From NCBI GenBank assembly GCA_050084515.1, contig CM114271.1, positions 1,922,001-1,986,000 of the forward strand: a DNA stretch of 64,000 nucleotides, read 5' to 3'. The translations under genes and the position numbers were made by a program. Below are positions 263-34,437 of this stretch, one piece after another (within the stretch, counting starts at the first letter, position 1; each line of letters opens with the position of its first letter). This stretch comes from Blasia pusilla (taxonomy: Eukaryota). A model generated the notes under the pieces. It did no database searches, was not told the DNA's origin, and saw only the letters and a program-made list of their open reading frames with translations.

Positions 263-778
263 TGTCACGTCCTTTAGGATAGATCGGTGAGATCTAGTAG
301 AGCGCCTTCAAGAGTAGTGGAAGACATGCCTAGGAGTTCGAGGATGACCTGCTGAGGCCCCGGGAAACCTAAGAGAGCAGGTTTCCCCTTCGTTTTGGCT
401 CATTTGGAGCCATATTGAGGAACTTACTAGTTTGGGTATGTACCATTTTGAGCATATGATCGACATTCTATTTTTGGTAAGTGGCCCTTGACCTCCTACA
501 TCAGGTCAAGAGCCAAGGAGGTGACTTGGGAGAATAGGTTACCATGGAGAGAGCTTGGGAGAGGGGAGGGGTATATATTCCAAGGAGAGAGAGCTTGAGA
601 GCTCATTCTCTCTTTGTTGAACCTCTTGGCATGAGGCGGCGGAGCTATGGTCCCTTGCCTTGTGAGTGTAACCCAAGCCTCTCATTAGGAGAGTGGGTTT
701 GGTTTGATATGAGAGCGAGTGCACACCTTTGAGAGCTATGGTGTGAGATTGTGTAGAGAGAGATTAGATCTTATTTTA
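263..778 (+). repeat. El-1 terminal repeat A1
   Basis: Near-identical to 18777-19115 (which lacks ~175 bp) and to the reverse complements of 42996-43511 and 31044-31562. Confidence 0.92.
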
Positions 779-1359
779 CAAAGAGAGAATGAGAGAAAGA
801 GAGAGCTTCATGGGGGAGCTCGCTGGTCACTCGATATTTTTGTAGGATGGGGACCGTGTTCCCCATCCAACGGCTCATGGGAATGCTCATGGGAGCAAGG
901 GTTGCTTGGATTGTTCTTTGCATTTGCCGATTTTTTGTGTGGAAGAGTGGCGCGCGGAAGCGCTGCCCAATTTCTGATAGGGATTGAGTATGGGGGCGGG
1001 TTGCCCCATGCCGGTGCTTTCGGGAGCACCATGTCGCTTTCTGATTTGTATTTTTACAGGTTTTACATTTTTGTTGGGAGGAATCAACGCGAAAGCGCTG
1101 CCGAATTTTGTGTAGGAGAAAGAGACATTGGGCTTTACAACAATCCCTTTCAGTTTTTACTGGAATGTCTGATTGTAAATATTTTTTGATGTTGGCGTAG
1201 ATCGTAAAGTTGTGCACGCTGTGCAACAAACTATGTGCAATTTGGAGTTACGAGCAAAATGTTATGATCAATCTTGCAAAACTACCATTGCTAGGCGATT
1301 TTTAGGGTTAAATTGTGCAAACCCTAAACCAGCCGCCACCGCCGCCGTCGCCGTCATAG

Positions 1360-2454: not shown

Positions 2455-4370
2455 GTGAGGTTCCGAGGGTCTTCACTTCAGGGACCACCTCGACCTCCTT
2501 CTGTGTCATCGTCAGACAAGGGAGAGGGTGTAGACGAGTTTTTGAGCACATCGCCACACATTGTGAGTGGTCCTACTAGTTGGGTGTACGAGATGGATGA
2601 CCGGGGTAGAGGACTACGTAGGTTTTCAGGTGCAGTAGGTACGATTGAGTTCCACGATTTCATAGCAGAGTTAAGGAGTTGGTGCGACTCTCAGAGGGCC
2701 AAGAACTCTAGAGAGTTCAACCCATTTACATCATGGAATGCTATGTTCCAGCATTTAGAGGGGGCACCCATGGACGATTACCATGAGTTTTCCCACAGAT
2801 ATGCCCACAAGATTGAGGCATGGCAACTCTACTACGACCCACACTATGTGTCGTGGGCGGAGCCGTTCCCAGATGAGGAGGAGGAGTTAGGAGAGGCTAC
2901 TTCCTCTTCCACTAGTGATGTTTTAGGAGGGATCACTCGCACTGGAGCAATTGCACCGTCTTGTCGGGTTCGTCCCAGGTTCAACCCGTGGTTGAGTTCT
3001 TTGCTGAGTTGAGGGCGAGCTACTAGGAGGTACGGAAGGAGAAGTTGCGGAGCATCCACAACTTCCAGAGGCGCCCGGGTGAGAGTTTACGTGAGGCTTA
3101 CACTCGCTTGCGCCGGTTGATCAACGTCACTCAGGGGATGATAGAGGCTCAGGCTATCCAGTCATGGTACGCGATGCTGGACCAGACCCTACGGCCACGA
3201 GTGCGGGAGGGGGTGCTTTTTATGAACACCTCCCCTACGTTGAGAGATGTTTTTAGGACCACCAAGAACATTGAGCGCAATATGGCAGAGGAGAGCGTAG
3301 CCACCATGGGTTCTGGGCCAGAGCACTCGCGATTGGCTGCACCACCTGTGCAACAATGTGGACTCCGAGATAGGTCAACTGTGGCACCACGAGCTCAGGG
3401 AGGATACGGGGAGCCGTGGCACAGAGACCTGCGCCTTCATATGCGGCTCAACAGCAGCCGCCTACTATTACTTGTTGGTCATGTGGTGGAGCCCATCATC
3501 AGCGCCATTGCACTCGTCAGGGTCATGGACGTGTGCCTCAGCATGAAGGAGGAGATGGTGCTGCACCAGGAGGTTATCAGTGTGACTATTGTCAGAGGTA
3601 TGGTCATACACGCGCAAGGTATTTCAGTTTACATCCTGAGTTACATCCGGACTAAGGGCCAGAGAGGGCACCAGAGTGAGTAGCCGGTCCGGGTGGGCCT
3701 AGAGATTGTGCACGGAGTGGTCCGTTGGGACGAGGAGCTGGAGTTGCCCGGACGGGGGTGGTGGAGCTGCCCGTGGAGGAGGTAGAGTACCACCACCTAG
3801 ACGCGCCGAGGGAGACGCCGGACGTGAGGCTGGGATGGCTGCTCAGATACAGCAGCTACAGGAGCAGATTGCCACTATGGCATTGAGGTTACCTGATGCA
3901 GGATCCGTGGCATCGACATCATATGGAGCAGCCAGAGATCTGGAGGATCTGGTTGGATGTCTTGGGTTGCCCAGATGGAGGCCGCCGGAGTTTGACGCCA
4001 GCGTGGAGCACGCAGAGTTGGATCCATGGGGAAGCCAGAAAACAGACTAGGCTTCCTCAGTCTTTCACGTTGTTCGAAGCGATGAGGACCCCATTGATGG
4101 GTCCTCATCAAAGTTCCTTGAGAGTTGGTGATGTTGTTGGTGTGTAGGCACGGAGGGCGATGGGAGAAGCGAGTGCGACGACTCCTATTGTTGATGCTCA
4201 AGAGGGGCATGTGTCGAGCACATTGTTGGGGGTGGCCACCATTGTGTACCGCACTCCTTTATTTTTTGCTTCCGATGTTATACGCCTGCCAAGGCTTTTT
4301 GGCTGGCCGCTTCACTATGTGAGCGCGGAGTTGGAGTTCCTACATCACGTTCAGAGGTGATTGTGGATTA
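2455..4370 (+). pseudogene. El-1 gag (frameshifted) with two zinc knuckles
   Basis: ORF pieces 2455-3012, 3045-3683 and 3416-3655 are homologous to El-2/El-3 gag pieces (GTIEFHDFIAE / GTIELEDFMQE; RPGESLREAYTRLRRLI). Knuckles CWSCGGAHHQRHC and CDYCQRYGHTRAR(Y). Start codon not resolved. Confidence 0.8.
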
Positions 4371-4371
4371 G

Positions 4372-4935
4372 GTGATGGACCTGCCCTTGGAGCGGATGCT
4401 TAGACCGTCCACGTTAGATTCATGGCAGGCTGCGGCTGCTAGGATGTCGGAGATGCCCGCCAGACCCACGATAGAGCGTGCCATGGCTTCTCCCGGTGTT
4501 GTGTTGCTGGATAACCAAGGAGAGGTCTTCCAATTGGTGAGTCTTAAAGGTAGAGCTTTTAGTCTGCAACGCGTCTTGTTGGATTCAAGAGCGCAACCCC
4601 TGATGTTGGGGAAACCGTCATTCAGAGGATTGGGCTTGATGAGAGCCGATGTGGAGCGTTGTCCATTCCGGATATAGACATCCTTGGGTGGAGCAAGTAC
4701 CACACAATATATCACCCGACAAGAGGTTGTGGTGAGGATTCGCCCGGGACATCCTACAGATGAGTCCATGGTGCGCGCCAAGGCGATAGTGACTGATGCA
4801 GAGTCCTACGACGTCGTGGTTGGTGGAGTAGTGTTATACCCAATGGGGTTTGCCCTGGATTATTGGGAGGAGTCAACATCCTACAGACCAGGATGGCAGT
4901 CAGGTGATGGGTGCCTTAGTTCATTACCCGTTTGA
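4372..4935 (+). pseudogene. El-1 aspartic protease domain
   Basis: RVLLDSRAQPLMLG (El-3 VLLDLGAQPL; consensus LLDSGA) and downstream YDVVVGG, typical of retropepsins. Confidence 0.8.
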
Positions 4936-5292
4936 TTCACAGGTGCAGTGATCGAGCAACGACCAGGAGAGATGGCGACCTTAGCAGCATTTAGCAGTGC
5001 CATCACTTGGCTTAGTGATTTGATTGAGGGACATGTCCATGCAGAGGATACTCCCGTTCCTGACATTTCTATGGAGAGGAGTGTTATGGTAGCTGCATCA
5101 TTCCGTGGAGGAGAGGTGCCGTTGTGGGGCTCGACTAAGGAGCTTCGACGATTGGCAGATGAGCACATGCAGACCGCGTGGAGCGAGGCGTTTGCACCGG
5201 AGCGTGATGGGTCTGAGGAACACAAGGTAGCAGGGAGTGCTACGATGACACCCTTGGATACCACATCCATTGTGTAGTGTACCCCGGAGGAG

Positions 5293-6245
5293 GGTATTCG
5301 AGTGTTAGATCTCTTTGGAGGGATTAGCACCGGGTTAGCTGCTGTTTTGCCGGCAAGAGTGCGAGTACAACAGTACCTGTATGTGGAGAGTGATGATGTT
5401 GCAAGGCGCGTCTCACTACGACATGTGGCGCAGTTACACCTACGTTTTCCCGACTTATTTTCTGCATCCGTAGTATAGGGGTACGAGAGTTCCCTACCAA
5501 GGGATATTTCGTTGTTGGGAACGCAGGACTTAGAGCGGGTAGGGACCATTGATTTGGTCATTTCCGGTTGGCCATGTCAGGGCCAATCGAGTGTTGGAAG
5601 AGGTAGCGGGTTGCCTCACACTCGGTCCAGGTTGTTTTGGGAGATGTTGAGGGTCTTACGGCAGTTGCAGGAGCACCAGTCTCGTTCTCCAGCCTACATT
5701 CTAGAGAACGAGACTGTGCCGATCTTAGGAGACTCCAGATCACGGGTGGTGATGAGTGCTCATCAAGTGCGTGCCTAGATCGGCCCAGTAGTGTTCTTGG
5801 ATGCGGCGAGTGTAGGTTCTAGAGCCCATTGCCCACGTCTATGGTGGACCAACTTGGTGTCCCATGCGGTGTTACGGAGGACGTATGCGAGAGTGGAGCG
5901 CCCCTCCCATTTGTTAGTGGATTCCATTCTAGATCCAGGTTGTGGATCACAAGTAGTGAGGCACGATGATCGACCACCACTGACTATGGTCAATAGGGTA
6001 GGCAGGCCGCGGGCAGCCTTTCCCACGTTTGTGAGTTTTCCCGCTTCCTATGCATACAAGGAGGCCGGTCCTGGCTTGGTTTGGGATGACCAAGTTTAGA
6101 GGTTGGTGGAGCCCAACGCCAAAGAGAGAGAGCAGGAGTGACACCCTCACAGGAGTGATGGCAGTCCCGTCAGTATCAGAGGCATCACGATGCCATGTCT
6201 TGGGTCAGGCGATGGACCTGAACTGCTTGACATGGATCCTCAGCT
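5293..6245 (+). pseudogene. El-1 DNMT3-like cytosine-5 DNA methyltransferase domain
   Basis: Motif I IRVLDLFGGISTG, motif II YLYVESD, motif IV DLVISGWPCQG, motif VI YILENE, motif VIII LDAASVGSRAHCPRLWWTNL, motif X VLGQAMD. Same reading frame as the upstream protease; contains in-frame stops and a frameshift near 6130. Confidence 0.92.
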
Positions 6246-6589
6246 TGGGAGTGGCTGAGCAGCGTCGTATGAGATCGCGACAGATCACAGCGGTTGCGTT
6301 GGTGAGCCCCATGCCTACCGAGATGGTGGAGGCAGTGGCTGAGGGCGAGACCCGAGGAGATCTATGCACCAGGGGAGATCGGGAGAGACACCCTTGTACT
6401 TCTTGGGATATTTTGCATGTACGCCAGGAGATGATAGCCACAACATCGAGCCTGGTTTCGGGCACTGCACGTGGAGGAGATTAGAGTTTGCAATTGGCTG
6501 TAGGAGAGCGGCTCAGTGTTGTTGTTCGAGACGGGGTTGCACCATAGCAACCACCGATACCCGCGTCGGAGAGTCCTACCGTAGTCACG

Positions 6590-8040
6590 ATGGAGACTTG
6601 GGAGCAAGATATGGGCCCTAAGTTGACAGGAGGAGAGCGGCGCCGAATACATCAGTTCCTCAAGAGTTATAAGAGCTGCTTTGTATTTAGCATGGAGGAT
6701 TTGGGGACGCTGAAGGGATCGGGGATCCACATTGAGTTGTCGAGTGATACGCCGATCTTCCGACGACCCTACAGGTACAGTGATATGGAGAGGGCTCTCA
6801 TTCAGAGTAGGAGCCAGGACTTGGTCTGAGCAGGACTAGTGGAGATGTCGCATGGGGAGTATGCATCTGCCATTGTGATGCCCGCCAAGAAGGATGTGCA
6901 TGGCAACTAGATGGATAGGCGGATGTGTGGGGATTACCGACCTATCAATCGTGATTTAAGTCCGATAGGTATGCCATGCCCACCCCGAGGAGATCTTTGA
7001 TGCGATTGGTCACGCAAAGGTCTTGATTCATTGATTTTGAGCGGAGACCATCAACTGCCTATCAGATTGGAGGACAGGCAGAAGACGGCATTTTGGGGCA
7101 TCGATCCTCATGGGAAGGATTGTTTGTACTAGTGGCGGTTCTTACCATTTGTGTTAAAGAACGCCCCGGCTGAGTTTCAGAGGGTCATGGATAGGATCTT
7201 GGCTGGTCTGGATTTTCCTAGGTGTTATATTGATGACACCGTAGTCTTTAGCGCCACGGTTGAGGAGCATGAGCGACATCTAGAGGAGGTGTTTCGACGA
7301 TTGCAATTACATGGGCTGAAGCTACATCTAGGCAAGTGCAAGTTCTTCTGCGACCAGATTGAGTACTTGGGTCATACGATATACCCAGGGAGCCTTGGTG
7401 TTCAGCAGACAAAGATATAGGCTATCTCACGCATTCCACGCCCTACCAATGTGAGCCGTGTTCGCGCATTCATGGGATTGGCGAACTTCTATCGGCGATC
7501 GTCAAGGGATTCAATTTGATTATGGCCGTTGACCTTGCGACCAAGGTGGATCACGAGTGGCACTAGGGGATGAGCGGGAGCGAGCATTTCGATTGCTCAG
7601 GACGGAGTTGGCGTCCGCGCCCATCTTGAGGAGACCGATCACGGGCGTCCTTTCCGATTGCACCACAGATTGGAGCATGTTGGGGCTTGGGCGGTGCTCA
7701 CCCAAAGATGATGATGAGGGTAGAGAGTTCGTGGTGGCTTACGCTAGCCGCTCGAACAATGTTGCAAAGGTGAAGTACAGCTCGTATGAGGGTGAGTGCT
7801 TCGCTACAGTGTGGGCTGTCGCGCATTTTAGGTGTTACTTATTCGGAAACCCCGTTACCATCATCACTGATCATCAACCACTGAAGTGGTTGATGGAGTC
7901 CGATAAGCTTACAGGGAAGCTTGCGAGATGGGCTCTGTTGTTGCAGGAGTATGATTTTCACGTGGTACATAGACCTGGGATGCTCAACAAGGATGCAGAT
8001 GGGTTGAGTCGTAACCCATGCCCGAGTCAGCGAGATGCGA
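6590..8040 (+). pseudogene. El-1 reverse transcriptase and RNase H
   Basis: PIFRRPYRYS, RMCGDYRPIN, LKNAPAEFQRVMD, CYIDD, KCKFF...YLGH; RNase H TDWSMLGLG...YSSYEGEC...TDHQPL...DADGLSR. Confidence 0.93.
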
Positions 8041-8199
8041 ATGGAGCTCGATGGCATGGAGAGAGTGATGAGGAGTCGGTGCTAGGATGGCACGTGTCTG
8101 CCTATTTAGGCATGTTGGCTATGGAGAGCCAGAGTGTGGAGACTTTGATGGCGAGGTCTAGCGGAGAGTCCTTGGATCCTGAGGCAAGTGAGGACACGA

Positions 8200-9221: not shown

Positions 9222-9969
9222 TGTCGTGCGAATCCACATCGTCATACAACATACATCGCTGACATACCATACTCACATACATAGATAACATAGATGAGAG
9301 TATCCACAAACACAAGTGTACCACAACTGAAATCCGTGAAAGACCTAGTGTCATAAAACACGTATACAATCACATACAATCGAGCCAAACCCACTCCACG
9401 ATGGAAGAATCTAGGTCAAAGCTTGCGGGAAACACCATAGCCAAGAGCTCTACTCACTACCAAGGCTAACTCCCAACGCAACAGGCTCAACTCAAAGAAC
9501 TGACTGTTCTTTGAGGGCACTCCACCTTATATCCTCCAACCTAAGAGCGATGGGAAAGTCACCCCAACTGAGTAACCCCCAACCCTATGTATGGAACCGC
9601 ATCTCTACCAAGCCACTACGGTCCTACATAAGGAATGGCCTCTACTAGCACACCATACTCTACGACATAATCTGTATGGTCATGACAAATGTGTCGTGCT
9701 TGAATCCACATCCTCATACAACATACATCGACATACCATACTCACATACATACATAACATAGATGAGAGTATCCACAAACACAAGTGTACCACAACTCGC
9801 CCCCCTAACTGGCGGTTAGGTCCCTCTAACTCCCAGGTAGCCCTATACATCTACTACATGCTATACACCTTCTTGGGTGCCCGAATCAGAAGGCCGGGTG
9901 CTAGGTTGCCCCATCGTTAGTCGCACATCTGTAATCCATATCATGCAAAGATCAAGTCATCTACCTCTC

Positions 9970-12900
9970 CTAAGTACATCGAGGACAAACCCACCTTCCA
10001 CTAGGAACAACATCCATACGTGGAGTCAAACACATCATGTGCCAACCCTAGAACACCGATCACACACCAACATACGGGTTGCGTTACCAGCAGATCCACA
10101 CAACATGCACCTCAAGCTAGCACGTATCATGGCTAAGCTTGGGTCAACAGTACCATCCACATTTGGAAGATGACATGGCGCACAATTACGCACATGGTCC
10201 TTCCAAACAACTCCATCACGACCCTCCAACATGAGAACTCCAGAAGCTAACACCTCGCAAGACTCGTAAAATAGTGCGGCCTGCCGTCACATCCAACGTT
10301 GTCGGTGCAATCTGCTGCAAATAGACATAGTCCCCCACATGGAACCTACGAATCGATGGTTGATAACCTCCACCTTGAATGGTTGCATACCGCAACGTAT
10401 CCCTGTGTTGAGCAATGGCAAGATTCTCAAAGGTCGTTGGCATAACTCTCGAAAGAAAGAGCTCCGCCGGCGAGAACACACCCTCATCCAAATCTGGGTC
10501 ATCAAGGTTCACCACCTCACTAGACTCCCGACAAATTCTTTCTTGGCAAGTCTGGATCTTGGCCATATAACAGAAAATAAGGTGAGAAGGAAGCCAAGGA
10601 TGCTTGGCGACTGAACCTATACCCCATGGCTAACCATGGCAATCGAACATCCAGTCTCAAGATGCCCCTTCAGAGGCCATACTTGCGCAATGCCCTCTTC
10701 ACCGCCTCGAACCACACGCTCAGCCAAACCATCCGCCTTGGATGATCTCGAGATGTGGTCCGATGATCAATCAACGCCTTGTCACACAAGACCGAAACTC
10801 ACGAAACTCAGACCGGTCGGTCAAGACACTTCAGCTGGTGCACCAAAATGACTAAGCACTCTATCTAGAAACGCATACGCCGTTCCCTCACTTGCCTTGT
10901 CCGGTAATGCCACCAACTCAATCCACTTGGAGAAGTGCTCCACCATCACCAACACATATCAATGATGTCGTACAGTGAACGGTAACGGTCCCGCAAAGTC
11001 CACACTCCAACGGTAACCCAACCCCATAATAGGCAAGGGGTGTAATTGTGGTGTAGGGGCATTAAATGATGCCCTCACCCGGTCACAAACCATACAACAT
11101 GACACCAACTGCTGCATGCCACGCCATCAATATCGGCCAAGGAGTAAGCTATACGACGCTTTACCCCAAAATGTCCCAACTCCTCATGGGCATGTCGCAC
11201 AATGCCTCTCTCTTGAGCCAAATGTGGCACTACTCGTACTCTACCATCCTCCCACACGCGGAGAATATGTGTTCCCTCCAATCGATACCTCTTAGCACGT
11301 TGAAGAACACGGTCTCGCTCCTTGGCACTCACTATGCCTGGCACCCTACTGGTCCATAGGAACTCCAACACCAACGCATCATCATGAATATCACGCTGAT
11401 CCGTACTACCATCTCCAACCTTAGGATCTGAAGGGTGGCCATCTACCCTCTGACTAGAGTAAGATATCATGTGGTCCTCCATACTAGAGTCCACCCCTTA
11501 CCAACATAAAAAGGCGGATGCATGCCAACCTGGCACCATCTCCTCATCAACCTCGCCATGCCATCTAGCCCCAGTTGTATCCTGTTGGCTAGTACATGGG
11601 TTCCTACTCAACCCATCAGCATCAAGGTTGGCAACTCTAGGTCTATGTACCACCTGGAAGTCATACTCCTGTAAGATAAGAGCCCACCGTGCAAGCTTCC
11701 CTGTAAGCTTGTCCGACTCCATCAACCACTTGAGCGGTTGGTGATCAGTAACAAGGGTAAAGTGGGTGCCAAACAAGTAACACCTAAAGTGTGCCACAAC
11801 CCACACTACTGCCAAGCACTCTCCCTCATATGAACTATAGCGCGACTCCGCTGCATTATTCGAACGACTTGCATAGGCCACCACAAACTCCATGTGCTCA
11901 TCATCATGTTGTGTCAACACCGCTCCAAGTCCCAACCTACTCCAATCGTGTGTAATCTGAAATGGGCGCCCTCGATAGGTCTCCTCAAGATAGGCGCGCC
12001 ACCAATCGGGCCTTAAGCTCCACAAAAGCTCTCTCGATCATCTCCCAAAGTGCCACTCTTGATCTGATTTCAGCAATTGGTTCAAAGGCTTTGCCATAGC
12101 ACTAAATCCTTTCACATACTTCCGATAGTAGTTCGCCAATCCCATGAATGCTCGAACTCTACTCACATCTACCGGACGTGGAATAAGTGCAATAGCCTCC
12201 ACCTTTGCTTGCTGAACTCCCAAACCACCTGGATAGATCACATGACCCAAGTACTCAACATCCTCATGGAAGAACTTACACTTTCCTGGATGCAAACGTA
12301 GACCATGAGCTTTCAACCGCTCAAACACCATATGCAAATGTATCTGATGCTCCTCCACCGTGTTACTGAACACCAAGATATCATCAATGTAACACCGAAC
12401 AAAATCCAACCCTTCTAGGATCTTGTCCATCACTCTTTGAAACTCGGCAGGTGCATTCTTCAACCCAAAGGGTAAGAATTTCCACTAGTACAAACAATCC
12501 TTGCCATGAGAGTTGACACCCCACGAATCTTTGTCTTGGCCTTGTCACTCTCCGAATCGGCAATTGATGGTATCTGCCCGAAGATCCAAAGTATCTGAAA
12601 ATCTTTGCCTGTACCACCACATCAAAGATCTCTCAGGTGTAGGCATGGCATACCTATCGGCCTTGGTTTGCCGATTGATAGGGACGGTAATCTCCACACA
12701 TCCGCCTATCCGTGTAGTTGCCATGCATATCCTTTTTAGCAAGCATGACGGTGGCCGATGCATACTCTCCATGCGACAACTCCACTAATCCAGCCTCCAA
12801 AAGGTCCAACGTCCTACTCTGAATCAAGTCCCTCTCCATATCACTATATCGGTAGGGACGACGGAAGATTGGCGTATCACTAGCCAAATCAATCCGTATA

Positions 12901-15900
12901 CCGAGTCCAACCAGAGAACCCAACTCCTTCATGCTAAAGGCAAAACAACTCCTATAAGCATGTAGGAGGCGTGTCAGCGTCGTTTCTCACCTCCCGTAAG
13001 CTTGGGCCCAAGTAATGGCTCCCAAGTCTCCTCCTTTGGCACACTAGAGGGAGAGGGCGATGCCATTGGTCGCTACTCATAACCCCCTCACAAGATGGTA
13101 CACCCTTAGCTACACCATCATCTGAGCAAATAACTCCTCCACCAGCATGAGCAACCAACTCCACATGCCCAGCCATTACATCCCATTTACTCCAAGGATG
13201 CAAAATACTACTCTCCTCGCCCCCAGCCGATGCCTCTACCGTCCCGGTAGCCATCGAGCTCATTACAAGGGGTGGAAGACCCTGAGACATAGTCCGAAGT
13301 CGATTTGCTCGACCATACCAAGACTCAAAATCCAAGTCAAACAATTCAGGTCCATGGCCTGACCCAACACATGACGTCGTGAAGCCTCGGAAATAGAAGC
13401 AACGGGCATTTGTCACACCAATAGCAAATCCCATCGCGACGCTCTCTCGATCAAGTGTTAGGCTCCACCAAGCCGCCGCACATAAGAATCCCATACAAGC
13501 CCCGGACCACCTTCCCTGTAGGCATGTGACGAGGGAAAACTCACAAATGTGGGTAGTGCCATCCTAGGCTGGCCCACACGGTTCACCACTGCCATGGGTG
13601 ACCGATCAATAACCCTCACCACTTGAGAAAGTCGCCCAAGATATCAAGATACTATCCTTTGAAGGCGAGGATCCCAGACCGCATCATATGCTCGACGTAG
13701 AACCTCCCTAGGCAACAAGTTTGTCCACCACAAGCGTGGGCGATGTGCACGCTGAGCCAACTGCGCATTTGCATCCAACAACACCACCTGGTCCAATCCA
13801 AGACCGCACCTCATGAACACTCGCCATCATCCGGGTCCGAGTGTCACCCAACAATGGAACATTCTCCAAAATGTAAGCTAGAGCACGTGCCTGATGAACC
13901 TGAAGATGTCGTAACACCCGTAACATCTCCCAAAACAATCGAGACCTAGGGTCATGTAATCCCTCACCACGACCAGACGTGTATGACCCTGACATGGCCA
14001 TCCAGCAATCACCAAATCCACAGGACCAACCCTCTCAAGGTCCTGCGCCCCCAACAATGCAATGTGTGATGGTAAAGCACGCTGGTACCCACGAATAGCT
14101 GATGGCGACAACAACTCGGGATATCTCGCATCAATCGACCAATATGTCGGGATGAGACTCTCTGGGCCGTCTCATCTCGCTCCACATACACGTATCTCCG
14201 CACAGGAATACCGGCCTGCAACACTACAGCCAAACCAGTGCTAATCCCACCAAAGAGATCTAACACACAAATGCCCTCCGACGGATACTGCCATACAATG
14301 GGTGTAGTATCCAAAGGGATAACTAATGGACCAGAAGTAGGAGTCCGTGGGGCCTCCTCTTCCTCGTGAGGTATAATGACCTCACACCAAGCCTCTGCAC
14401 TAGGCGATCGCCTCTGCCGTAGTGCACCGCTGAACTCCAAAGTGGCACATCCAACGATGAGGATGCCACTGCTGCAAAAATAAGGACCTCCTCTACCTCC
14501 TCATGCGCAGGAGAATCCATAGCAGAAAAATTACCCTCCAAAAAGTCTCCTGGCCAAGTGACTACTCCACTAAAACCAGCCACAGATGCTAACATTGTTG
14601 GGAAGACCCTCTGGTCGAGCCCCGAAATAAATCTCACAGAACTTGGCTCATACGTCCATCCCTGATGCCAACCAGGTGTAAGACGCTGTCTCGATCCGGT
14701 AATCCATCCGAAAACCCATCGGTACAACATCGCTCCTCCAACTAGTACATCATACGACTCGGCCGATGTGACTACCGCAGATACTCCCAACCGGGAGCTA
14801 TCAGTCGCATGATCTGGTCTCAACTGTACAGAAAAATTTTCCCGTGTCATGAATTGAGACCTATCATTGGCTCCTCCAAGTGATGTTTGAATCTGGAATG
14901 GGCAAGGCTCAAGCTCGACCTCCGAATACCCAAACCAATACATGCCGCCTTTCCCAACATCAAGGTTGGGCACCGAGTCTAACAAGACTCTATCTGGTCT
15001 ATACACTGTCTGTAGGACTCACCAATCGGAAGATCCCACCGGTTGTCCAACATACATACACCAGGTGTAAGCCTCTCACGATCAATGGTGGCCGGGTGGT
15101 AATGCATCCATCTTCGCCATTTCTTTGCTCGCTAAGTAGCATGGTACTCAATGCTACACGACATAGAGGGTCGCTCCACCGCAACATCCTCATCCACCTC
15201 AACACGTGTAGCAAGAACACCCCACGTTCACACAATGTGGTCGCTAGCTGAAATACTGAGCTAAGTCAACTCCTAAAGCCATCGGCTCCGTGGGCGAAAA
15301 CAATGGGGATCCCAACACTAAAGTTGCCATCCGCACATCTTGATCGATCTTGCATCCGTGTCTACTACACGCCGATGTAGATGCCTCGATCCCCAATGTC
15401 GGCTCAATAGGCTGCGAGGAACCATGGATGGAGTCCTAAGCACCTCGAGACAACAAGAATGATGGGAAGCCTAGCCTGCCTCCCAGCCTCACCCCTCTAT
15501 GGGTCCAACTCCACAGTAGCACCACGTGGCTCTGACGTTCGAGTGGCTCCTCTCATAAGTGCAGCTGATGCCTTAACCTGTGCTGCACTCGCCATATAAG
15601 AGAGATCATCCCCTCCATAAGAGGTGGAAGCTCCTACTCCCGAACCTGATCTATGCTGGATACCAGCCATAGTAGCCAACTTCTGCTCCAACTGCTCAAT
15701 CCTGGCAGCCATAGCTGACTCTGTCGTAGTGGTAGGGTTGCCACCGTAGGCTCTCCAACCACTGGTCCACCTCTACCACCTCGACCTCTCAGAGCTACTC
15801 CACCACGGCCGCGGCCTGATCTCAACTCTGGATGAAGATCAAAGCAACGCTCTCGAGGATGACCTGGTGTCCCGCAATGATCACACTGAGTTGGGGCCGA

Positions 15901-17069
15901 CTGAGACCCATCCTCCAAAGTCCGTCTCCCATCCTCTTGGGGACAAAACTTCCTAACATGATCACCTCCACATGTCCAACATGACTGTCCTTGCTGCGGG
16001 GCAGCAAATGAAGGCAATGGTCTCTGCGCAAGTGTCCCTCTAGGACTTGACTAAGGTCGTGTGTACCCCCCACGACTCCCACTACTACTACCACCACCAC
16101 TACTACGAGACTGTGAGGTGGGCGGTTGAACACGAGAAGTAGTAGTTGTATCCCTACTGAATGCGGATGTCACCACTCTCTCCTTCACCATGTTAAGCTC
16201 AATCTTCTCAGATAGAGCAAACACATGGGTCAATGTGGGTGAATCATCACTCATAAGAGTAGCATCACGTACCCTACGGGCGCAAATCTCTGTCCAAGAT
16301 CCCATACCAAAAGCTGGATCGCTCGATCCTCAATCACACCCTGGGTAATGAAATCAGCGTCGATACGAGTGTATGCCTCACGAAGACTCTCACCGTCTTT
16401 CGCTCAAATTCTGAAGATTCCTCAACTTTTCCGTCTTCACTCCCTGATAGTTCTTCTTCAACCTCTTGAAGAACTCTGCAATCGAGATGAACGATGGTGG
16501 GGCACTAGTACCTCCACTAGTACCCCCCTCCGGCCTCGCACTGCACCACTCAACGTCGGGCTGGCTAGCATAGTAGGAGCACTACTACCAATACCACCAT
16601 GGGTGATAGACACATAGCCTGGAGACCAATATTGTCTCCATGCCTCAATCTCAGCAACATGGTCCTTCCTAAACTCATGGTTATCATCCATGGGTGGTCC
16701 TTCCAAGTGCTGAAACAACCCCTTCCAAGCCAAGAAGGGTGTAAACAACGTGGCGTTCCGCAACATCTGCATATCACACCATGTATCAAACTCCTGCATG
16801 AAGTCCTCCAACTCAATGGTACCCACTACACCCGAGTATCGTCGTGGGCCCTTCATGGCCCCATATCCACCGTCCATGTCCCAAATCAATGGAGCTGCAA
16901 CACTCGATAACAACGTAGAAGACTCGGTGTTTGGAACACCCTCGTCCTCCTCTTCATCAACCGTCGGAAGTGGAAAAGGTAGCCGATACCTAAATCCACT
17001 CCGTGTGAAACCACCATTGTCCGCACCACGGTCCCCAACCAGACCACTCGACAGCTCCGTGATGACCAA
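9970..17069 (-). pseudogene. El-2 Gag-PR-DNMT-RT-RH-INT-PHD polyprotein (many frameshifts)
   Basis: Knuckles CWTCGGDHVRKFC and CDHCGTPGHPRERC; RVLLDS; DNMT motifs; CYIDDILV; YSSYEGECLAV; HAHEELGHFG; C-terminal CMLC...CDRC...WVCPRC. Confidence 0.9.
13330..14278 (-). pseudogene. El-2 DNMT3-like methyltransferase domain
   Basis: ICVLDLFGGISTG, YVYVERDE, GPVDLVIAGWPCQGH, RSRLFWEMLRVL, YILENVPLLGD, AHRPRLWWTNL, VLGQAMD. Confidence 0.92.
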
Positions 17070-18028
17070 CGCCGATGCCGCACCACCACCAAATTACCCA
17101 AGTGATGTCGATGTCGCTCTATTATTGTAGCTCTCCTAGCTATGGGTGTAGGCAACCTAACCTCTCATCACCACAAGAAGCCTCCCATGGTCTACTGGTC
17201 ATCACTCCAGCCTCACTATCAGTAGCACACATGAGTAACACTACTCTGGAAATCAGCGTCAACCCTAACAATGGGCGCGCAAGCAAGAAGCACGATGGAG
17301 GGGATCCAAACACATGAAGTCCAACGACAACCCTCCAATCGCAAATGGAAATCAAGGTAACACAATCCACCAAACGTGGTGCCCCCCTGAATCCACAAAA
17401 CCCACCACACAATTCTAACGCAATAGCTACTCCGCCGCGGGTCGATGACGTACTAGTCGAACTTGCAGCACCTGAAAATATCACCTGCATGGAGAGGCTA
17501 CACCGTACTATGCGCTAGAGGTACATCAACCAAAAACCTGAGATGCATAAAGCGCCTAACACATCTCCGAACAGCACCAAATGAGCTACAACAGTGTGTA
17601 CACTGGCATAGTTAAGAACTCAACAGTTAAGCGTCCTCCAGGCAGAATAGCCCAAAGATGGGTGACCAGTTATGCAAAACTCAAATCCCAAATCCTGCAA
17701 AAATTACCTCACGCCCAAGCAAGCAAGCTTGCTTGCTTGCTCCTTGCTCCTTGCTCCTTACTCCGCCTCTCACGCCCACTCGCCCCGAGCTACCACGAGT
17801 TGCCTCGAAGCCTCGAAGCCTCAAAGAACTGACTGTTCTTTGAGGGCACTCCACCTTATATCCTCCAACCTAAGAGCGGGCCCTACTGGGAAAGTCACCC
17901 CCAACTGAGTAACCCCCAACCCTATGTATGGAACCGCATCTCTACCAAGCCACTACGGTCCTACATAAGGAATGGCCTCTACTAGCACACCATACTCTAC
18001 GACATAATCCGTATGGTCATGACAATCG

Positions 18029-18461
18029 GGATACGTTGAGGTATGCGACTATTCAGGGTGGTGGTTAACGACAAACTATCCGGAGGTTTCATTAGGGAGA
18101 TTATGTCTACTTGCAACAGACGGCACCGACGATGTTGGATGTGACTGTAGGGCGCACTATCTTGAGAGTACGTGACGTTTTGCCATCCGGTGTTCTCTTG
18201 CTGGAGGGACGCGATGGTATGGTATGGAAGGACCATGTGCGTAATTGTGCACCATGTCACCTTCCTAACATTGATGGTACATTGGATCCGAGCTTAGTAG
18301 TAGTTCCTACAGGCTTGTGTTGTATGTTGTGTGGTTATGCTCGTGGTGCGGTCACAATACTAGTCTATGATGGTTTTTCGAGAGGTTGGCATATGGCATG
18401 TCCGACGCCACCTCTCACTAGGGTTCCTTGGGGACGATGGATGTGTCCCAGATGTACATAG
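18029..18461 (+). pseudogene. El-1 integrase C-terminus with PHD finger
   Basis: CCMLCGY...VYDGFSRGWHMACPTPPLTRVPWGRWMCPRC. El-2 and El-3 retain CDxC, giving a C4HC3 PHD pattern. Confidence 0.88.
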
Positions 18462-18647: not shown

Positions 18648-18774
18648 ATTGGAGATATTTGGTACTTCTTGTCTCGTTTTTTGGATGCTATGAGTTAGCA
18701 TGGGATCGTGCGTGTTTGTGTGTGTGTTCGGTGACAGCGATGTATGTTGTGTAGCGATGTGTATGCGCACGACA
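18648..18774 (+). repeat. El-1 internal repeat B1 (ends GCACGACA), preceded by G-tract TAGGGGGGCG
   Basis: Matches B2 at 19116-19225 and El-3 B1/B2 on the minus strand. Confidence 0.9.
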
Positions 18775-18776
18775 GT

Positions 18777-19225
18777 TGTCACTTGGTTTATGATAGATCG
18801 GTGAGATCTAGTAGAGCGTCTTCAAGAGTAGTGGAAGACATGCCTAGGAGTTCGAGGATGACTTGGGAGAATATGTTACCATGGAGAGAGCTTGGGACAG
18901 GGGAGGGGTATATATCCCAAGGAGAGAGAGCTTGAGAGCTCATTCTCTCTTTGTTGAACCTCTTGGCATGAGGCGGCGGAGCTATGATCCCTTGCCTTGT
19001 GAGTGTAACCCAAGCCTCTCATTAGGAGAGTGGGTTTGGTTTGATATGAGAGAGAGTGCACACCTTTGAGAGCTATGGTGTGAGATTGTGTAGAGAGAGA
19101 TTGGATCTTACTTTAATTGGAAATATTTGGTACTTCTTGTTTCGTTGTTTGGATGCCATGAGTTATCATGGGATCGTGCGTATTTGTGTGTGTGTTCGGT
19201 GACAGCGATGTATATGCGCACGACA
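18777..19225 (+). repeat. El-1 A2+B2 terminal unit (TGTC...GACA)
   Basis: A2 (18777-19115) matches A1 apart from an internal deletion; B2 (19116-19225) matches B1. Confidence 0.9.
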
Positions 19226-30560: not shown

Positions 30561-31872
30561 GCGCAAGAGTTTGAAAGTTATTACAACAAGGACATTGTGT
30601 CTTAAATAGGAGAAGGTTTATAACCATCCTTTGTTAGTCATAGTTAAGTTAAAATCTATGACATGAAGCGCATAAATGGGAAAGAATCAACAAAAAAGAG
30701 AAAAGGACAAGATATATGAGATAAAGATGAGAGTAGGGTCATAAGTTGGTGAAAAGTAAGGATAAAGTTGAGATAAAGATGAGGGTGGGATCATAGGTTG
30801 GTGAAAAAGAAGATAAGGATGAGGGTGGAGAATATGATGTTGAGACATTAAAGTCCAAAGGAGATCCTCTCATGCTATGAGAGTAGGACACGTGGCATAA
30901 GGATAGGTAGAGGTTGTCGTGCGCATACACATCGTTACACAACATATATCGCTATCACTGAACACACACACACAAACATGCACGATTCCATGCTAACTCA
31001 TGGCATCCAAACAACGAGACAAGAAGTACCAAAATATCTCCAATAAAATAAGATCCAATCTCTCTGACAACACCATAGTTCTCACATGTGTGCACTCTCA
31101 CATGTCTCTCTTAATGTCAAACCAAACCCACGTACTCTCCTAATAAGAGGCTTGGATTACTCTTACAAGGTAATGGACCATAGCTCCGATGCCTCGTGCC
31201 AAGAGATTCAACAAAGAGAGAATGAGCTCTCAAGCTCTCTCTCCTTGAGGTATACCCTTCCCTCCCCCAAGCTCTCTGCATGGTAACCTATGCTCCCAAG
31301 TCACCTCCTTGGCTCTTGACCTGATGTAGGAGGTCAAAAGCCACTTACCAAAAATAGAAATTCGACCATATATTCAAAATGGTACTTACCTAGAATAGTA
31401 AGTTCTTAAAAATAGCTCCAAATGAGCCGAAACGAAGGGGAAACCTACTCTCTCAGGTTTCTCGGGGCCTCAGCAGGTCATCCTTGACCTCTTAAGCCTA
31501 TCCTCCACTACTCGAGAAGACGCTCTACTAGATCTCATCGATCTATTCTAAAAGATGTGACAGTTATCGTGCGCATACACATCGCTACAAAACATACATC
31601 GTTGTCACCGAAAACACACACCAACACGCACAATCCCATGCTAACTCATGGCATCCAAACAACGAGACAAGAAGTACCAAAATATCTCCAATCGCCCCCC
31701 TAGGTGGTGGTTAGGTCCCTCTAACTCCCAAATAGCCATCTATCCCTACCTACCATGACATACATCTCTTGGACGATAAGAGCAAGAAGGCCGAGTGCTC
31801 ATATGGCCCCATCGTTAGTCGCCTTCTTGTCATCCATATCATAGACAAAAGTCAGAATGTAGAACTACCTAT

Positions 31873-34437
31873 GCTATGTACGTATGGGACACATCCATCA
31901 TCCCTGAGGAACCCTAGTGAGAGGTGGTATCAAACATGCCATGTGCCATCCTCTCGAACATCCATCACAGACTAGCATAGTGGTAGCACCGCGGGTAGAA
32001 CCACACAACATACATTGCAAGCATGCAAGAACTATTGTTAAGCTCGGATCAACTGCATCTTCAATGTTTGGAAGGTGACACGGCACACAGTTACGCACAT
32101 GGTCCTTCCAAACCATACCATCGCGTCCTTCCAATAAGAGGACACCTGATGGCAAAACCTCACACACTCTCAAGATGGTGCGCCCTACAGTCACATATAA
32201 CGTCGTGGATGCCATCTATTGCAAGTAGACCTAGTCTCCCTGATGAAACCTCTAGATAGTAGTTTGATAATCACTCCCCCCGCGAATAGTCGCATACCTC
32301 AATGTATCCCGATGCTGCGCAATCGCCAAGTTCTCAAACGCCATACGCATCACTCTCCGAAATAATTCAGCCCTCTGAGAACATGCTCGCATCCATACAT
32401 CAAGGTCATCAAGCTTCAAGACCTCACCAACATCTCGAAGAATGGCTGCAAGTAAATTTGGCTCTCGGCCATACAAAAGTAAGTATGGTGTGAAAGACGC
32501 TAAGGATGTCTGCCTGCTGAATCTATATCCCATGGCCAACCACGGAAACTTGAGGTCCCAATCTCCTAGGTGACCTCTCTGCAAGCCATACATACGTAGT
32601 CCTTTCCATCTACACAACCCGCTCCGCTAGTCCATCCGCCTCAGGATGATCCCGCGAAGTAGTGCGGTGGTCGATCAGTGCATGATCACACAAGGCATGA
32701 AACTCCCTGCAAAACTCTGTACCCAGGTCTGTCAACACCTAAGCTGGTGCGTCGTAATGACTCAACACTCAATCTAGGTAGGCATACACTACTCCCTCAC
32801 TGGCTTTGTCAGGAAATGCAACCAACTCTATCCACTTTGAGAAGTGCTCGACCATCACCAACACATAACGACTATGGTGCTCCGTCAAAGGCAAAGGTCT
32901 TGCAAAATCCAAACTCCATCTATCACGTAAACCCATGATCGGAAGTAGATGCAACTGTGGAGTCGGAGCATTGAACAATGCTTGGACTCGATCACACACC
33001 ATGCATGTGGCAACAAACTTTTGAACGTCACTTTGCATGCCTCGCCACCCATACTGAATCTGGAGCAAGCTGTATGTGTGCTTAACTCCAAAATGACCCA
33101 GTTCCTCGTGGGCATGATGCACGAAATGTGCTCTGTGCAGAGGATGTGGCACTATATGCACTCTACCATCCTTCCACACTCGCAACACATGTGTCCCCTC
33201 CCACCGGAAGTGTCTGGCTTGTTGTAGGATCCGATCCCTCTCTCTAGCAGCCACTGTGTTCGTGACGCTGCCAGTACGCAGGTACTCCAGGACCACTCCA
33301 TCGTCGTGAATGTCTCGACCACCGATCGTCTCCTCAGCGGCCTCTGGATCTAAGGACTCTACATCAGACCTCGCCATCAAAGTCTCAGCAATCTGGCTCT
33401 TCATAGCCAACAATCCCAAATAGGTTGACGCATGCTATCCTGACACCAACTCCTCACCACTCTTACCATGCCAACGAGCTCTAGTTGCATCTCGTTGACT
33501 CAGGCATGGGTTACGGCTCAAACCATCTGCATCTTGATTGAGCATCCCAGGTCTATGCACCATATGGAAGTCATACTCTTGCAATAAAAGAGCCCACCTC
33601 GCAAGCTTCCCTATAAGCTTGTTGGACTCCATCAACCACTTAAGTGGATGATGATCAGTAATGATGGTATAGGGATTTCTTAATAGATAACATCTGAAAC
33701 GTGCGACAACCCATACTGCAACCAAGCACTCACCCTCATATGAGCTATACTTTGCCTCTGCAATATTGTTCGAGCAACTAGCATAAGCCACCACGAACTC
33801 TCTAACATCATCATCATGCTGGGTGAGCACAGCTCCAAGCCCCAACATGCTCCAATCAGTATACAACTAGAAAGGAAGCCCCCTGATCGGTCTCCTCAAT
33901 ATGGGTGCGGATGTCAATCGGTCCTTGAGCAGCTAAAATGCTCTCTCCTGCTCACCCCAGTGCCACTCCTGATCCACCTTGGTCAGAAAGGTTAGCGGCT
34001 TTGCAATCGAACTGAAACCCTTGACGTACCGTTGATAGAAGTTTGCCAATCCAATGAGTGCACGAACTCGACTCACATCTCTAGGGCGTGAAATGCATGA
34101 AATAGCCTCTACCTTCGTTTGTTGCACACTAAGGCCCCCTAGCTATATCGTATGACCGAAGTACTCAATCTGGTCGTAGAAGAACTTGCACTTGCCTGGA
34201 TATAGCTTTAGCCCATGTAACTACAATGTCATCAATATAACACCTTGCAAAATCCAGACCTGCCAAGATCCTATCCATGACCCTTTGAAAATCAATCGGG
34301 GCGTTCTTTAACCCAAATGGTAAGAACCGCCATTGGTACAAGAAATCCTTCCTGTGAGGATCGATGCCCCAAAATGTTTCTTTTGCCTGTCCTCCAATCT
34401 GATAGGCAGCTGATGGTATCTGGCTCGAAGATCTAAC
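31873..34437 (-). pseudogene. El-3 RT (C-terminal part), RNase H, integrase, PHD
   Basis: LPFGLKNAP..CYIDD; YTDWSMLGLGAVL; HAHEELGHFG..CMVC; WSLDF; CMLC..CDGCSRGWHMAC. Confidence 0.9.

Follow-up and report, generated by a model that had tools for sequence, protein, structure and literature searches.

The window, by which we mean the whole 64,000-nucleotide stretch of Blasia pusilla DNA that was analysed (assembly GCA_050084515.1, contig CM114271.1, forward-strand positions 1,922,001 to 1,986,000), contains three decayed copies of a Ty3/gypsy element with nested insertions, El-1 on the plus strand and El-2 and El-3 on the minus strand, together with a fourth relic. El-1 begins with an LTR-like terminal repeat A (263..780, +) that starts with TGTCAC and has blastn matches at 18777-19116 (93-97% identity) and among the El-3 repeats. 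The gag region (2584..4300, +) is spread over three frames with stops and was placed by tblastn with the relatives P0003 and P0016 and from the ORF text; it includes a CCHC-type knuckle at about 3470-3650 (+), the equivalent place in the nearly intact relative L011 scoring 29.9 bits as zf-CCHC. The protease (PR) region (4288..5277, +) was located by tblastn and has the active-site triplet D-S-R (4582-4590), where the relatives have D-S-G; a Pfam search of the El-1 protease gave no match, and Asp_protease_2 reaches 23.0 bits on the relative P0013 (cut-off 24.3). A DNMT3-like C5 methyltransferase domain, hereafter MT, occupies 5278..6412 (+), as indicated by PF00145, the translation and tblastn with residues 543-1243 of P0003, and is followed by a stop codon, TAG then CAACCA, at 6545..6553 (+). 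Reverse transcriptase (RT, 6584-7708), RNase H (RH, 7569-8345) and integrase (INT, about 8400-9221) lie beyond it on the plus strand, broken by frameshifts and stops and recognized by tblastn and Pfam (RVT_1 68.9, RT_RNaseH 97.8, Integrase_H2C2 57.4 and rve 41.5 bits).

The El-1 integrase is interrupted by El-2 (9222..18024, -; blastn and tblastn), which is about 72% identical to El-1 in nucleotide sequence, has the termini TGTC...GACA and is flanked by a 4-bp target duplication, ATCG, at 9218-9221 and 18025-18028. Its MT lies at 14395-13132 (-; tblastn with intact relatives), its conserved TAG at 13075-13073 (-), and its 3' repeats at 9797-9691 (B), 9690-9329 (A) and 9328-9222 (B), all on the minus strand. 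El-1 then resumes with the C-terminus of its integrase, including a decayed PHD finger (18029..18458, +; tblastn with P0217, PF00628), and ends with 3' repeats (18649..19213, +; blastn) in the order B 18649-18745, A 18777-19116 and B 19117-19213, this second repeat A lacking about 166 bp. El-3 (30944..43509, -) belongs to the El-1 subfamily (81-85% nucleotide identity to El-1). On the minus strand it comprises a 5' repeat A (43509-42996), gag-PR-MT (41192-37753, the MT itself running from about 38500 to 37753), RT/RH/INT (34453-32310), a PHD finger within 32605-31886 and 3' repeats B 31691-31594, A 31560-31044 and B 31043-30944; a foreign low-GC insert of 3.3 kb (34453-37746) interrupts the MT past motif VIII/IX and replaces the MT C-terminus and the RT N-terminus. 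The fourth MT relic (44882..45397, +) is heavily decayed and lies in low-GC DNA; it was found by tblastn (E 2.5e-6, 32% identity) and gave no match in a Pfam search.

The domain order is thus gag(CCHC)-protease-MT, an in-frame stop, and RT-RNase H-integrase-PHD finger, with CCHC gag, protease, RT, RNase H and integrase in the Ty3/gypsy order by Pfam and tblastn. The repeats are laid out as A-coding-B-A-B in all three copies (blastn), with no simple LTR pair. No tRNA-type primer site was recognized by eye after repeat A, and Rfam (at the gathering threshold) and ARAGORN each gave 0 matches across the whole window. Every copy in the window carries many stops, frameshifts and nested insertions; all are dead and none is capable of making protein, so the window is silent on the activity of the enzyme.

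The preliminary description of this DNA placed a C5 methyltransferase between protease and RT in three copies, with coordinates and reading frames that proved right within a few codons, and suggested a scan with PF00145, whose gathering cut-off is 22 bits. That scan finds the domain in El-1 (32.4 bits, E 8.3e-8) and El-3 (35.4 bits, E 1.1e-8), while El-2, in which the MT is broken across three frames, scores 17.2 bits and falls below the cut-off; tblastn with intact relatives detects the MT of all three copies at E-values of 1e-90 or better. In El-1 a single frame (4372-6099) does cover the protease and most of the MT, with six stops inside it (five TAG and one TGA), and includes the strings LDLFGGIS, GWPCQG, ENETV and SRAHCPRLWWTN, whereas HVLGQAMD of motif X shares the RT frame, the next one over (6035-6484), again as described. 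The MT runs in frame 1 to about 6135 and in frame 2 from about 6122, the frameshift being specific to this copy; motif I is at about 5314, the PC cysteine at 5575-5577 and the ENV glutamate at 5704-5706, and the in-frame stops of the MT are at 5275, 5476, 5776 and 6097. The shared frame of protease and MT extends for about 1.8 kb in El-1 and 1.4 kb in El-3. The PC of motif IV is found in all three copies; ENV is uninterrupted in El-2 and El-3 and carries two extra residues in El-1 (ENETV); and the motif VIII string AHRPR, ascribed earlier to all of the copies, is literal in El-2 alone, El-1 and El-3 having AHCPR.

The motifs of the El-1 translation follow the order I, IV, VI, VIII, X and are not permuted, unlike those of DRM. 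All of 27 diverse MT domains have the ENV glutamate; conservation is at least 90% for the cysteine and glutamine of motif IV, and either complete or at least 90% for the RxR arginine. The likeness to DNMT3 proposed in the preliminary description is borne out by sequence and predicted fold, in comparisons that used the intact relatives P0003 and P0174 and not the decayed window copies: all 25 PDB sequence matches of P0003 are DNMT3A, 3B or 3C (best E 1.7e-8), and the Foldseek rows listed for the predicted model of P0174 (pLDDT 88.7) are all DNMT3A/B/C (33 rows, ranks 1-48; E down to 5.9e-19, target TM 0.79-0.84). The relatives share the unpermuted motif order with these animal catalytic domains but are only 20-23% identical to them, have gag and protease upstream, and show no PWWP or ADD domain in Pfam searches of P0003, P0013 and L011. 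PWWP and ADD define the animal DNMT3 enzymes rather than the catalytic clade.

The MT has evolved under purifying selection, as judged from substitution patterns, in agreement with the earlier proposal that it was retained by selection. For this domain, dN/dS is 0.19-0.32 in pairs of window copies (0.19 for El-1 against El-3, dS 0.74) and 0.17-0.20 between metagenome subfamilies, values that fall between those of RT and protease and are to be read with synonymous sites saturated in deep pairs (pS 0.66-0.80) and with codon alignments guided by protein similarity, which bias dN downward; where decayed copies form shallow pairs the ratio is 0.36-0.89, as expected of dead elements. Relatives of the window copies are transcribed in sense in this host. 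In three RNA runs the depth across 2300-9300 is 12-166 and the first mate is mostly on the minus strand in 30 of 30 bins; the reads are mostly 85-95% alike to the window (only 10-28 of 4187-4890 are at least 99% alike) and therefore originate in relatives whose coding state is not visible.

A conserved in-frame stop divides gag-PR-MT from RT-RH-INT-PHD, and is a new observation here. It occupies one aligned position in 43 of 44 MT-RT junctions (33 TAG and 10 TAA), and the six bases past it are CAACCC in 39 of the 43, CAACCA in three and CAACTC in one. The El-1 stop, like that of L011, is TAG CAACCA, matching the type I readthrough motif of tobamoviruses, UAG followed by CARYYA, as given in the source consulted (PMC5382211); El-2 has TAG CGACCA at the equivalent spot. 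The upstream and downstream ORFs share a frame at every one of the 44 junctions, a single tblastn alignment covering each, and coding similarity reaches both edges of the stop; in comparisons of the window with the loci the hexamer after the stop is nearly invariant, the flanking protein being about 40% conserved. The nearly intact L011 has gag-PR-MT-RT-RH-INT in a single frame with two in-frame stops over 6.5 kb. Eight reading frames end 44-65 residues past the MT (models from Marchantia in five cases and Calypogeia in one, and two unnamed ORFs). Gene models were considered as proof of a single ORF and set aside as weak, since the gaps in P0005 and P0016 resemble predicted introns that skip the stop. 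The earlier view of the MT as part of the polyprotein thus holds for the in-frame joining of protease and MT and for the single frame of L011, but has to accommodate a conserved stop between MT and RT. Conservation and context point to readthrough at this stop; weighing against it, CAACCC, without the final A of CARYYA, follows 39 of the 43 stops, and TAA stands in place of TAG at 10. The C-terminal end of the integrase is a PHD finger, also a new observation here, scoring 39.7 bits with PF00628 (cut-off 24 bits) in El-3 and 18.4 bits, below the cut-off, in El-1.

The gag-PR-MT(-RT-RH-INT) arrangement is shared by named relatives in Marchantia, Calypogeia, Riccia, Sphagnum, Closterium and Mesostigma, the nearest of which are 52-62% identical to the decayed copies, and 1830 library proteins match the MT at E up to 0.001, 125 of them at E up to 1e-30. 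A second architecture, RT-RH-MT-INT-PHD, is found in chlorophytes, in gene models of Scenedesmus sp., Haematococcus lacustris and Chromochloris zofingiensis and in many metagenome ORFs; we did not find this group described in a literature search. The chlorophyte elements are, like the window family, Ty3/gypsy with a related MT and a PHD finger ending the integrase, and differ in having the MT between RNase H and integrase rather than between protease and RT; across all 150 listed representatives of both architectures the MT is 30-44% identical to that of El-1. In the MT tree, a quick search with no outgroup, the El-1 clade of 27 rows includes Marchantia, Calypogeia and Sphagnum sequences (SH-aLRT 100), and all 18 RT-RH-MT rows fall in a separate clan of 44 rows (SH-aLRT 98) with no PR-MT row inside it. 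The homologue searches returned no host DNMT sequence.

The closest published system is KnitGypsy-Dnmt3 of the freshwater alga Klebsormidium nitens, first described by de Mendoza et al. 2018 (PMC5890265), which the text and legends of that paper present as a streptophyte Ty3/gypsy-type element with a non-rearranged Dnmt3-type domain inside its coding region, as in the window copies. The A-coding-B-A-B layout is common to both (Fig. 1 and Fig. 4 legends, PMC5890265), the published Ka/Ks below 0.2 compares with 0.17-0.32 here, and the published tree places the K. nitens copies within a divergent Dnmt3 clade (PMC5890265). The relatives of the window copies differ in belonging to land plants, namely liverworts and mosses; the PR-MT-stop-RT order, the candidate leaky stop and the PHD finger are seen in the window family, KnitGypsy-Dnmt3 being known here from legends and text. 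K. nitens is not named among the 16 + 46 + 100 listed homologues or in 20 looked-up clusters, and as no K. nitens sequence was compared, the kinship rests on layout, architecture and host phylogeny. Self-blast of six long metagenome loci gave one LTR pair (L041), one B-like pair (L016) and no full A-B-A-B. We regard the window element as a land-plant member of the published streptophyte Gypsy-DNMT3 kind and not as a new category. The earlier suggestion that no characterized land-plant family is known therefore stands narrowly, in that our literature search found no paper on one, but the kind is published, and public annotations of Marchantia, Calypogeia, Riccia and Sphagnum already contain gene models with PF00145. 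SymbioDIRS-Dnmt3 and SymbioLINE-Dnmt of Symbiodinium are likewise retrotransposon-encoded DNMTs, the former also with A-coding-B-A-B repeats, but they belong to the DIRS (tyrosine recombinase) and LINE classes in another host kingdom and are, according to the authors, independent acquisitions (PMC5890265).

Our main reading, to which we give a probability of about 0.75, is that the window copies are dead, nested Ty3/gypsy elements of the streptophyte Gypsy-DNMT3 lineage whose coding region includes a DNMT3-type MT. For active copies we lean towards a scheme in which Gag-PR-MT would be the main translation product and a minority of ribosomes would pass the putatively leaky TAG CAACCA to yield a longer protein that continues into RT-RH-INT-PHD; the MT, matching Gag in abundance, would then enter the particle alongside it. 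Moloney MLV offers a parallel in its gag-pol readthrough, the stop there too being in frame and set between a plentiful upstream product and the polymerase (PMC5009743, as far as that source was consulted), although the stop here comes after protease and MT, not gag alone, and most relatives have CAACCC. More tentatively, MT released by the protease may act de novo on the freshly made cDNA of the element or on the site of insertion, methylating it, so that a new copy would arrive pre-marked and the mark would be maintained by the host. That the PHD finger might read histone state and so steer integration is a more doubtful suggestion still. Stop-separated gag and pol are reportedly found in other plant LTR elements.

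As explanations of the MT-like stretch, a chance motif match or a piece of a host gene carried as a passenger have a negligible probability, and we consider them already refuted: nothing but the decay of the copies favours them, while PF00145 is above the gathering score in two copies, three copies from two subfamilies have the domain at one and the same place, the library matches number 1830 and 125 at the two E-values given above, and pN is far below pS. Independent capture of a host DNMT3 by the land-plant elements, with convergent likeness to KnitGypsy-Dnmt3, seems to us quite improbable; retrotransposons have captured DNMTs several times, by the published accounts consulted (PMC5890265; bioRxiv 10.64898/2026.05.21.726589), and the comparison here lacks K. 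nitens sequence, but the PR-MT-RT architecture is common to Mesostigma, Closterium, liverworts and mosses, the RT-RH-MT rows form their own clan without any PR-MT row, and the unusual A-coding-B-A-B layout matches the legends of the algal report (PMC5890265). It is less plausible than our main reading, under which the lineage is shared. Far more credible, though we still hold it unlikely, is that the MT-RT stop is an ordinary terminator of ORF1, with RT-RH-INT made by reinitiation, from an internal start, or from a separate or spliced transcript; the incomplete CARYYA in most copies and the 10 TAA codons among 43 favour this, as do RNA-only joints such as 6710 to 7771 (11-23 reads per run), whereas the common frame of all 44 junctions, the coding similarity up to both stop edges and the near-invariance of the six following bases beside a protein only about 40% conserved argue for readthrough.

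What the MT does also admits other answers. It may have been kept without being an active DNA methyltransferase, as a DNA-binding, oligomerizing or host-factor-recruiting protein in the manner of DNMT3L for DNMT3A, or as an enzyme acting on RNA, and the selection data do indicate constraint rather than catalysis. Non-catalytic scaffolds such as DNMT3L usually lack the catalytic residues; in the 27 domains compared here, conservation of the PC cysteine, ENV glutamate and RxR arginine is complete or at least 90%, and we judge loss of catalysis improbable. In favour of a non-catalytic role, the only published assay of the KnitGypsy-Dnmt3 domain, in yeast, showed no de novo methylation, but human DNMT3B failed in it too, and the authors call it inconclusive (PMC5890265, as far as consulted); SymbioDIRS-Dnmt3 does methylate CG de novo in yeast (PMC5890265). 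A slightly weaker prospect is action in trans on the host genome or rival transposons, for instance to silence competitors or mark nearby chromatin, instead of on the element's own cDNA. MT at the level of Gag would far exceed the needs of one cDNA, and the contig word-depth sums of X1 are very large, though these are not copy numbers; against this, direct evidence is lacking, and the K. nitens methylome is reported to be ordinary and plant-like despite such elements (PMC5890265). Self-directed methylation, tentative as it is, remains the function we prefer.

Retrotransposons bearing the host's own silencing enzyme present a paradox, and descriptions of them have until now concerned dinoflagellates and a single charophyte alga. 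Liverworts and mosses widely harbour this lineage, it is transcribed in this host, and selection has preserved its catalytic residues; the question thus moves to testable organisms, among them Marchantia with its transformation, methylome and mutant resources. If the stop is indeed leaky, the enzyme is to be expected at the level of Gag and inside the particle, a change of both dose and location. The boldest form of this reading, which we think unlikely, is that bryophytes including Marchantia harbour a still-transcribed gypsy inherited from streptophyte algae, with a DNMT3-type enzyme made at Gag stoichiometry ahead of a TMV-like leaky stop and coupled to a PHD-finger integrase, which would place 5mC on its own cDNA and choose its chromatin. 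If true, it would be a self-contained epigenetic toolkit, first testable in a tractable land plant, and the split between chlorophyte (RT-RH-MT-INT-PHD) and streptophyte (PR-MT-stop-RT) elements would date the partnership before the green lineages diverged. In comparisons of host DNMT repertoires, the many bryophyte gene models named 'DNA (cytosine-5)-methyltransferase' should be counted as transposon genes.

Two minor observations may be added. Strand-biased C-to-T decay was considered as the source of the strong GC skew and rejected; the nearly intact L011 and L002 are equally skewed (+0.17 to +0.22), and the skew is therefore a family trait. Separately, an Atlas search confirmed a TFIIB zinc ribbon in the TFIIB-like exon.

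The methyltransferase-bearing element of the window is a genuine feature, and it is a land-plant (bryophyte-type) representative of the already known Gypsy-DNMT3 elements. Self-comparison of the window, together with tblastn searches using intact relatives, resolves a single retrotransposon family in three copies. El-1 lies on the forward strand at 263-9221 and resumes at 18029-19213; El-2 (9222-18024, reverse strand), with termini TGTC...GACA and a 4 bp target duplication, ATCG, at its flanks, sits within the El-1 integrase; and El-3 occupies 30944-43509 on the reverse strand. El-3 is 81-85% identical to El-1 at the nucleotide level and has lost the C-terminus of the cytosine methyltransferase domain (MT) and the N-terminus of the reverse transcriptase (RT) to a 3.3 kb low-GC insertion (34453-37746), which has a G+C content of 40.8% and a GC skew of its own of +0.24. 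The identity of El-2 to El-1 is only about 66-72%, and two subfamilies are therefore present. In addition, tblastn located the heavily degraded remains of a fourth MT at 44882-45397. The copies in the window are all dead, since every aligned block contains stops and several frame changes are needed per copy. The protease (PR) triplet of El-1 is D-S-R where its relatives have D-S-G, and its ENV motif contains two extra residues.

In El-1 a single frame, 4372-6099, covers the protease and most of MT and is interrupted by six stops (TAG five times, TGA once), and residues 543-1158 of the intact relative P0003, which belong to PR and MT, align to the same frame (frame 1) over 4288-6135. The final MT motifs are in frame 2 (6122-6412), as is RT (6584-7708); the change of frame at about 6122-6135 is peculiar to this copy, as both P0003 and the metagenome locus L011 are continuous there. 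The preliminary description had placed an MT between protease and RT as part of the polyprotein, and its account of the frames was correct; the motif strings it listed were recovered. Its expectation of a PF00145 match (gathering score 22 bits) was borne out for El-1 (32.4 bits) and El-3 (35.4 bits) but not for El-2, which scores 17.2 bits because its domain is divided among three frames; the relic at 44882-45397 has no PF00145 match. Downstream of MT, Pfam models identify RVT_1, two RNase H (RH) models, Integrase_H2C2 and rve in El-1.

The likeness of MT to DNMT3 is seen in both sequence and predicted structure. A phmmer search of all PDB sequences with P0003 (E up to 0.001) returned 25 matches, every one of them DNMT3A, 3B or 3C, the lowest E value being 1.7e-8. 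The short relative P0174 was modelled with AlphaFold from a 27-sequence alignment (pLDDT 88.7, pTM 0.88), and of the Foldseek matches to this model all 33 listed (ranks 1-48) are likewise DNMT3A, 3B or 3C, with E values down to 5.9e-19 and target TM-scores of 0.79-0.84 for catalytic-domain chains. Within the 27-sequence alignment the ENV glutamate is invariant, and the motif IV cysteine, the motif IV glutamine and the RxR arginine are each at least 90% conserved.

An in-frame stop between MT and RT is conserved. Five gene models from Marchantia, one from Calypogeia and two unnamed ORFs, several of them unrelated to one another, end 44-65 residues past MT. We fetched 80 metagenome loci encoding relatives, most of them decayed; L011, with only two stops, encodes gag(CCHC)-PR-MT-RT-RH-integrase (INT) in a single frame. 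A single in-frame alignment spans the junction in 43 of these loci and in El-1 (n=44), the other 37 loci failing to reach or span it, and a stop is present at the same aligned position in 43 of the 44 (TAG in 33, TAA in 10); the exception, a distant copy (L076), has TTT. The six bases that follow are CAACCC in 39 cases, CAACCA in three and CAACTC in one; the El-1 junction reads TAG CAACCA (6545-6553) and that of El-2 TAG CGACCA (13075-13067). According to the text available of PMC5382211, tobamoviruses use UAG followed by CARYYA for type I readthrough, and murine leukaemia virus is described as producing Gag-Pol by readthrough of an in-frame UAG (PMC5009743, in part); the final A of CARYYA is absent from most copies of the present family. 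Judging from the conservation of the stop and its context, the main product is likely to be Gag-PR-MT, with the RT-RH-INT part appended through occasional readthrough. A conserved leaky stop of this kind would place MT in the Gag-level product, a predicted arrangement that goes beyond what is in print as far as we have found.

Estimates of dN/dS (Nei-Gojobori, with codons paired through a reference protein) indicate that MT has been constrained. The values for MT are 0.19 between El-1 and El-3 (dS 0.74), 0.23 between El-1 and El-2 and 0.32 between El-2 and El-3, the last two comparisons being saturated; they are thus well away from the value near 1 that the preliminary description had named as contrary to its reading. 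Elsewhere in the window copies, segments containing RT give 0.10-0.36 and the protease 0.28-0.59. Across metagenome subfamilies MT shows pN of 0.24-0.26 against pS of 0.66-0.69, a constraint greater than that on gag and protease and less than that on RT. Shallow pairs of decayed copies give dN/dS of 0.36-0.89, matching the expectation for neutral decay after death of the element.

Relatives of the element are numerous. A word-index search of long proteins, with 2790 candidates scored, gave 16 matches, and one of proteins similar in length gave 46 from 6346 candidates; where a species is named, the matches are gene models of Marchantia polymorpha (many), Calypogeia fissa, Riccia sorocarpa, Sphagnum fallax, S. 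troendelagicum and S. tenellum, at 61-65% identity to El-1 at most. With HMMER, run exhaustively over 1.84 billion representatives, 1830 proteins matched at E <=0.001 and 125 reached E <=1e-30; many of the matching proteins are 1000-3200 residues long. When domain segments were probed against all 218 fetched proteins, MT followed gag/protease or preceded RT in 49, and followed RT/RNase H or directly preceded the integrase in 83; it stood alone in 85, and one protein had INT-PHD. Outside the bryophytes, the organisms named for the first architecture are Closterium spp. and Mesostigma viride, and we therefore regard it as the streptophyte form. The second is usually RT-RH-MT-INT-PHD, as in P0027, P0034, P0035, P0261, P0089 and other chlorophyte and metagenome gypsy elements, its named members being the chlorophytes Scenedesmus, Haematococcus and Chromochloris; we found no account of such elements in the literature searched on retrotransposon DNMTs. 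This split in domain order between streptophytes and chlorophytes is, as far as we have found, also new. One Closterium protein (P0298, strain NIES-54) has a weak MT match (E 5e-20) and copia-type Pfam domains, which fits the remark, in the part of PMC12344493 available, that LTR Copia elements contain some of the DNMT3 members.

A quick maximum-likelihood tree was made from 114 MT domains of 230-400 residues, a range that excludes many second-type domains, and is consistent with this division. In this tree, which has no outgroup, the 18 RT-RH-MT rows are all grouped in a single clan of 44 rows (SH-aLRT 98) containing no PR-MT row, and El-1 belongs to a 27-row clade (SH-aLRT 100) alongside Marchantia, Calypogeia and Sphagnum sequences; a 13-row Marchantia polymorpha clade excludes El-1. 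The moss sequence P0185 (Sphagnum troendelagicum) is nearer to the Marchantia clade than are the leafy-liverwort sequences P0175 and P0181 (Calypogeia), with SH-aLRT of 95-99, a pattern that could stem from ancient paralogous lineages or from transfer among bryophytes.

At its C-terminal end the integrase carries a PHD finger (PF00628), which scores 39.7 bits in El-3, 36.7 bits in the Marchantia model P0217 and 18.4 bits, under the cut-off, in El-1; an integrase of this kind is a further feature that we have not found in print. The termini are more complex than a plain pair of LTRs. A repeat of about 100 bp (B) flanks the 3' repeat A on either side, at 18649-18745 and 19117-19213 in El-1, 9797-9691 and 9328-9222 in El-2, and 31691-31594 and 31043-30944 in El-3, and the El-2 target duplication shows that the final B integrates with the rest of the element. 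In the text available of PMC5890265, the arrangement A-coding-B-A-B is attributed to DIRS elements and is said to apply as well to KnitGypsy-Dnmt3, the Klebsormidium nitens element with a Dnmt3 domain; it is exactly that of El-1, El-2 and El-3.

The same source describes retrotransposon-borne DNMTs in Symbiodinium (DIRS, LINE) and in the charophyte K. nitens, and later papers mention 'streptophytes (Gypsy-DNMT3)' (bioRxiv 10.64898/2026.05.21.726589; PMC12344493; both in part). Expression of the K. nitens domain in yeast gave no methylation, a result termed inconclusive by its authors (PMC5890265). In the literature on Marchantia and bryophyte retrotransposons, MpDNMT3, cytosine methyltransferase and Gypsy-DNMT3, judged mostly by title and abstract, no description of a land-plant Gypsy-DNMT3 family was found.

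The family is transcribed. Three RNA-seq runs, whose organism label is that of the best DNA matches, cover 2300-9300 of El-1 at depths of 12-166, and the first mate is mostly on the minus strand in 30 of 30 bins, which, given the usual stranded libraries, indicates sense transcripts. Reads at least 99% alike number only 28 of 4535, 27 of 4187 and 10 of 4890, most being 85-95% alike, so that the RNA comes from relatives and not from the El-1 copy. Most reads differ by one base in length at several El-1 frame-change sites (e.g. 7499, 7598, 7663 and 8634). A joint from 6710 to 7771 that skips 1060 bases is present in 14, 23 and 11 reads of the three runs and absent from the DNA contigs of X1; its ends are TG..GG rather than GT..AG, and it could derive from a genomic relative with a deletion or from transcript processing. 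About 148,000 contig pieces of the DNA run match, and the family is therefore abundant, although depth does not equate to copy number.

The base composition of the window is uneven, with G+C of about 50-54% in the left 19 kb and in 31-43.5 kb, both of which show marked strand-specific GC skew, and about 30-45% in the remainder. An excess of G over C on the coding strand (skew +0.17 to +0.23) is seen in 781-9221, 9797-17660 and 37746-42990 and in the metagenome loci L011 and L002; decay was ruled out as its cause, nearly intact relatives being skewed too, and it is a family trait. The CpG observed/expected ratio is 0.60-0.78 in the window copies versus 0.28 in L011. Retroelement debris at 25118-25297 (reverse), 29086-29853 (forward) and 29811-30455 (forward) includes a gag relic of the present family (tblastn, E 5e-7) together with fragments of a different gypsy element, from its RT/RNase H and the C-terminus of its integrase. 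Long CT/GA dinucleotide microsatellites at about 27505-27783 and 57200-57560 appear as SL runs in ORF lists. The sole recognisable cellular gene is represented by an open frame at 56883-57300 (forward strand), which encodes a zinc ribbon of the TFIIB type and a linker, scores 0.97 in the Atlas against TFIIB zinc-ribbon clusters and is probably exon 1 of a TFIIB gene of the host.
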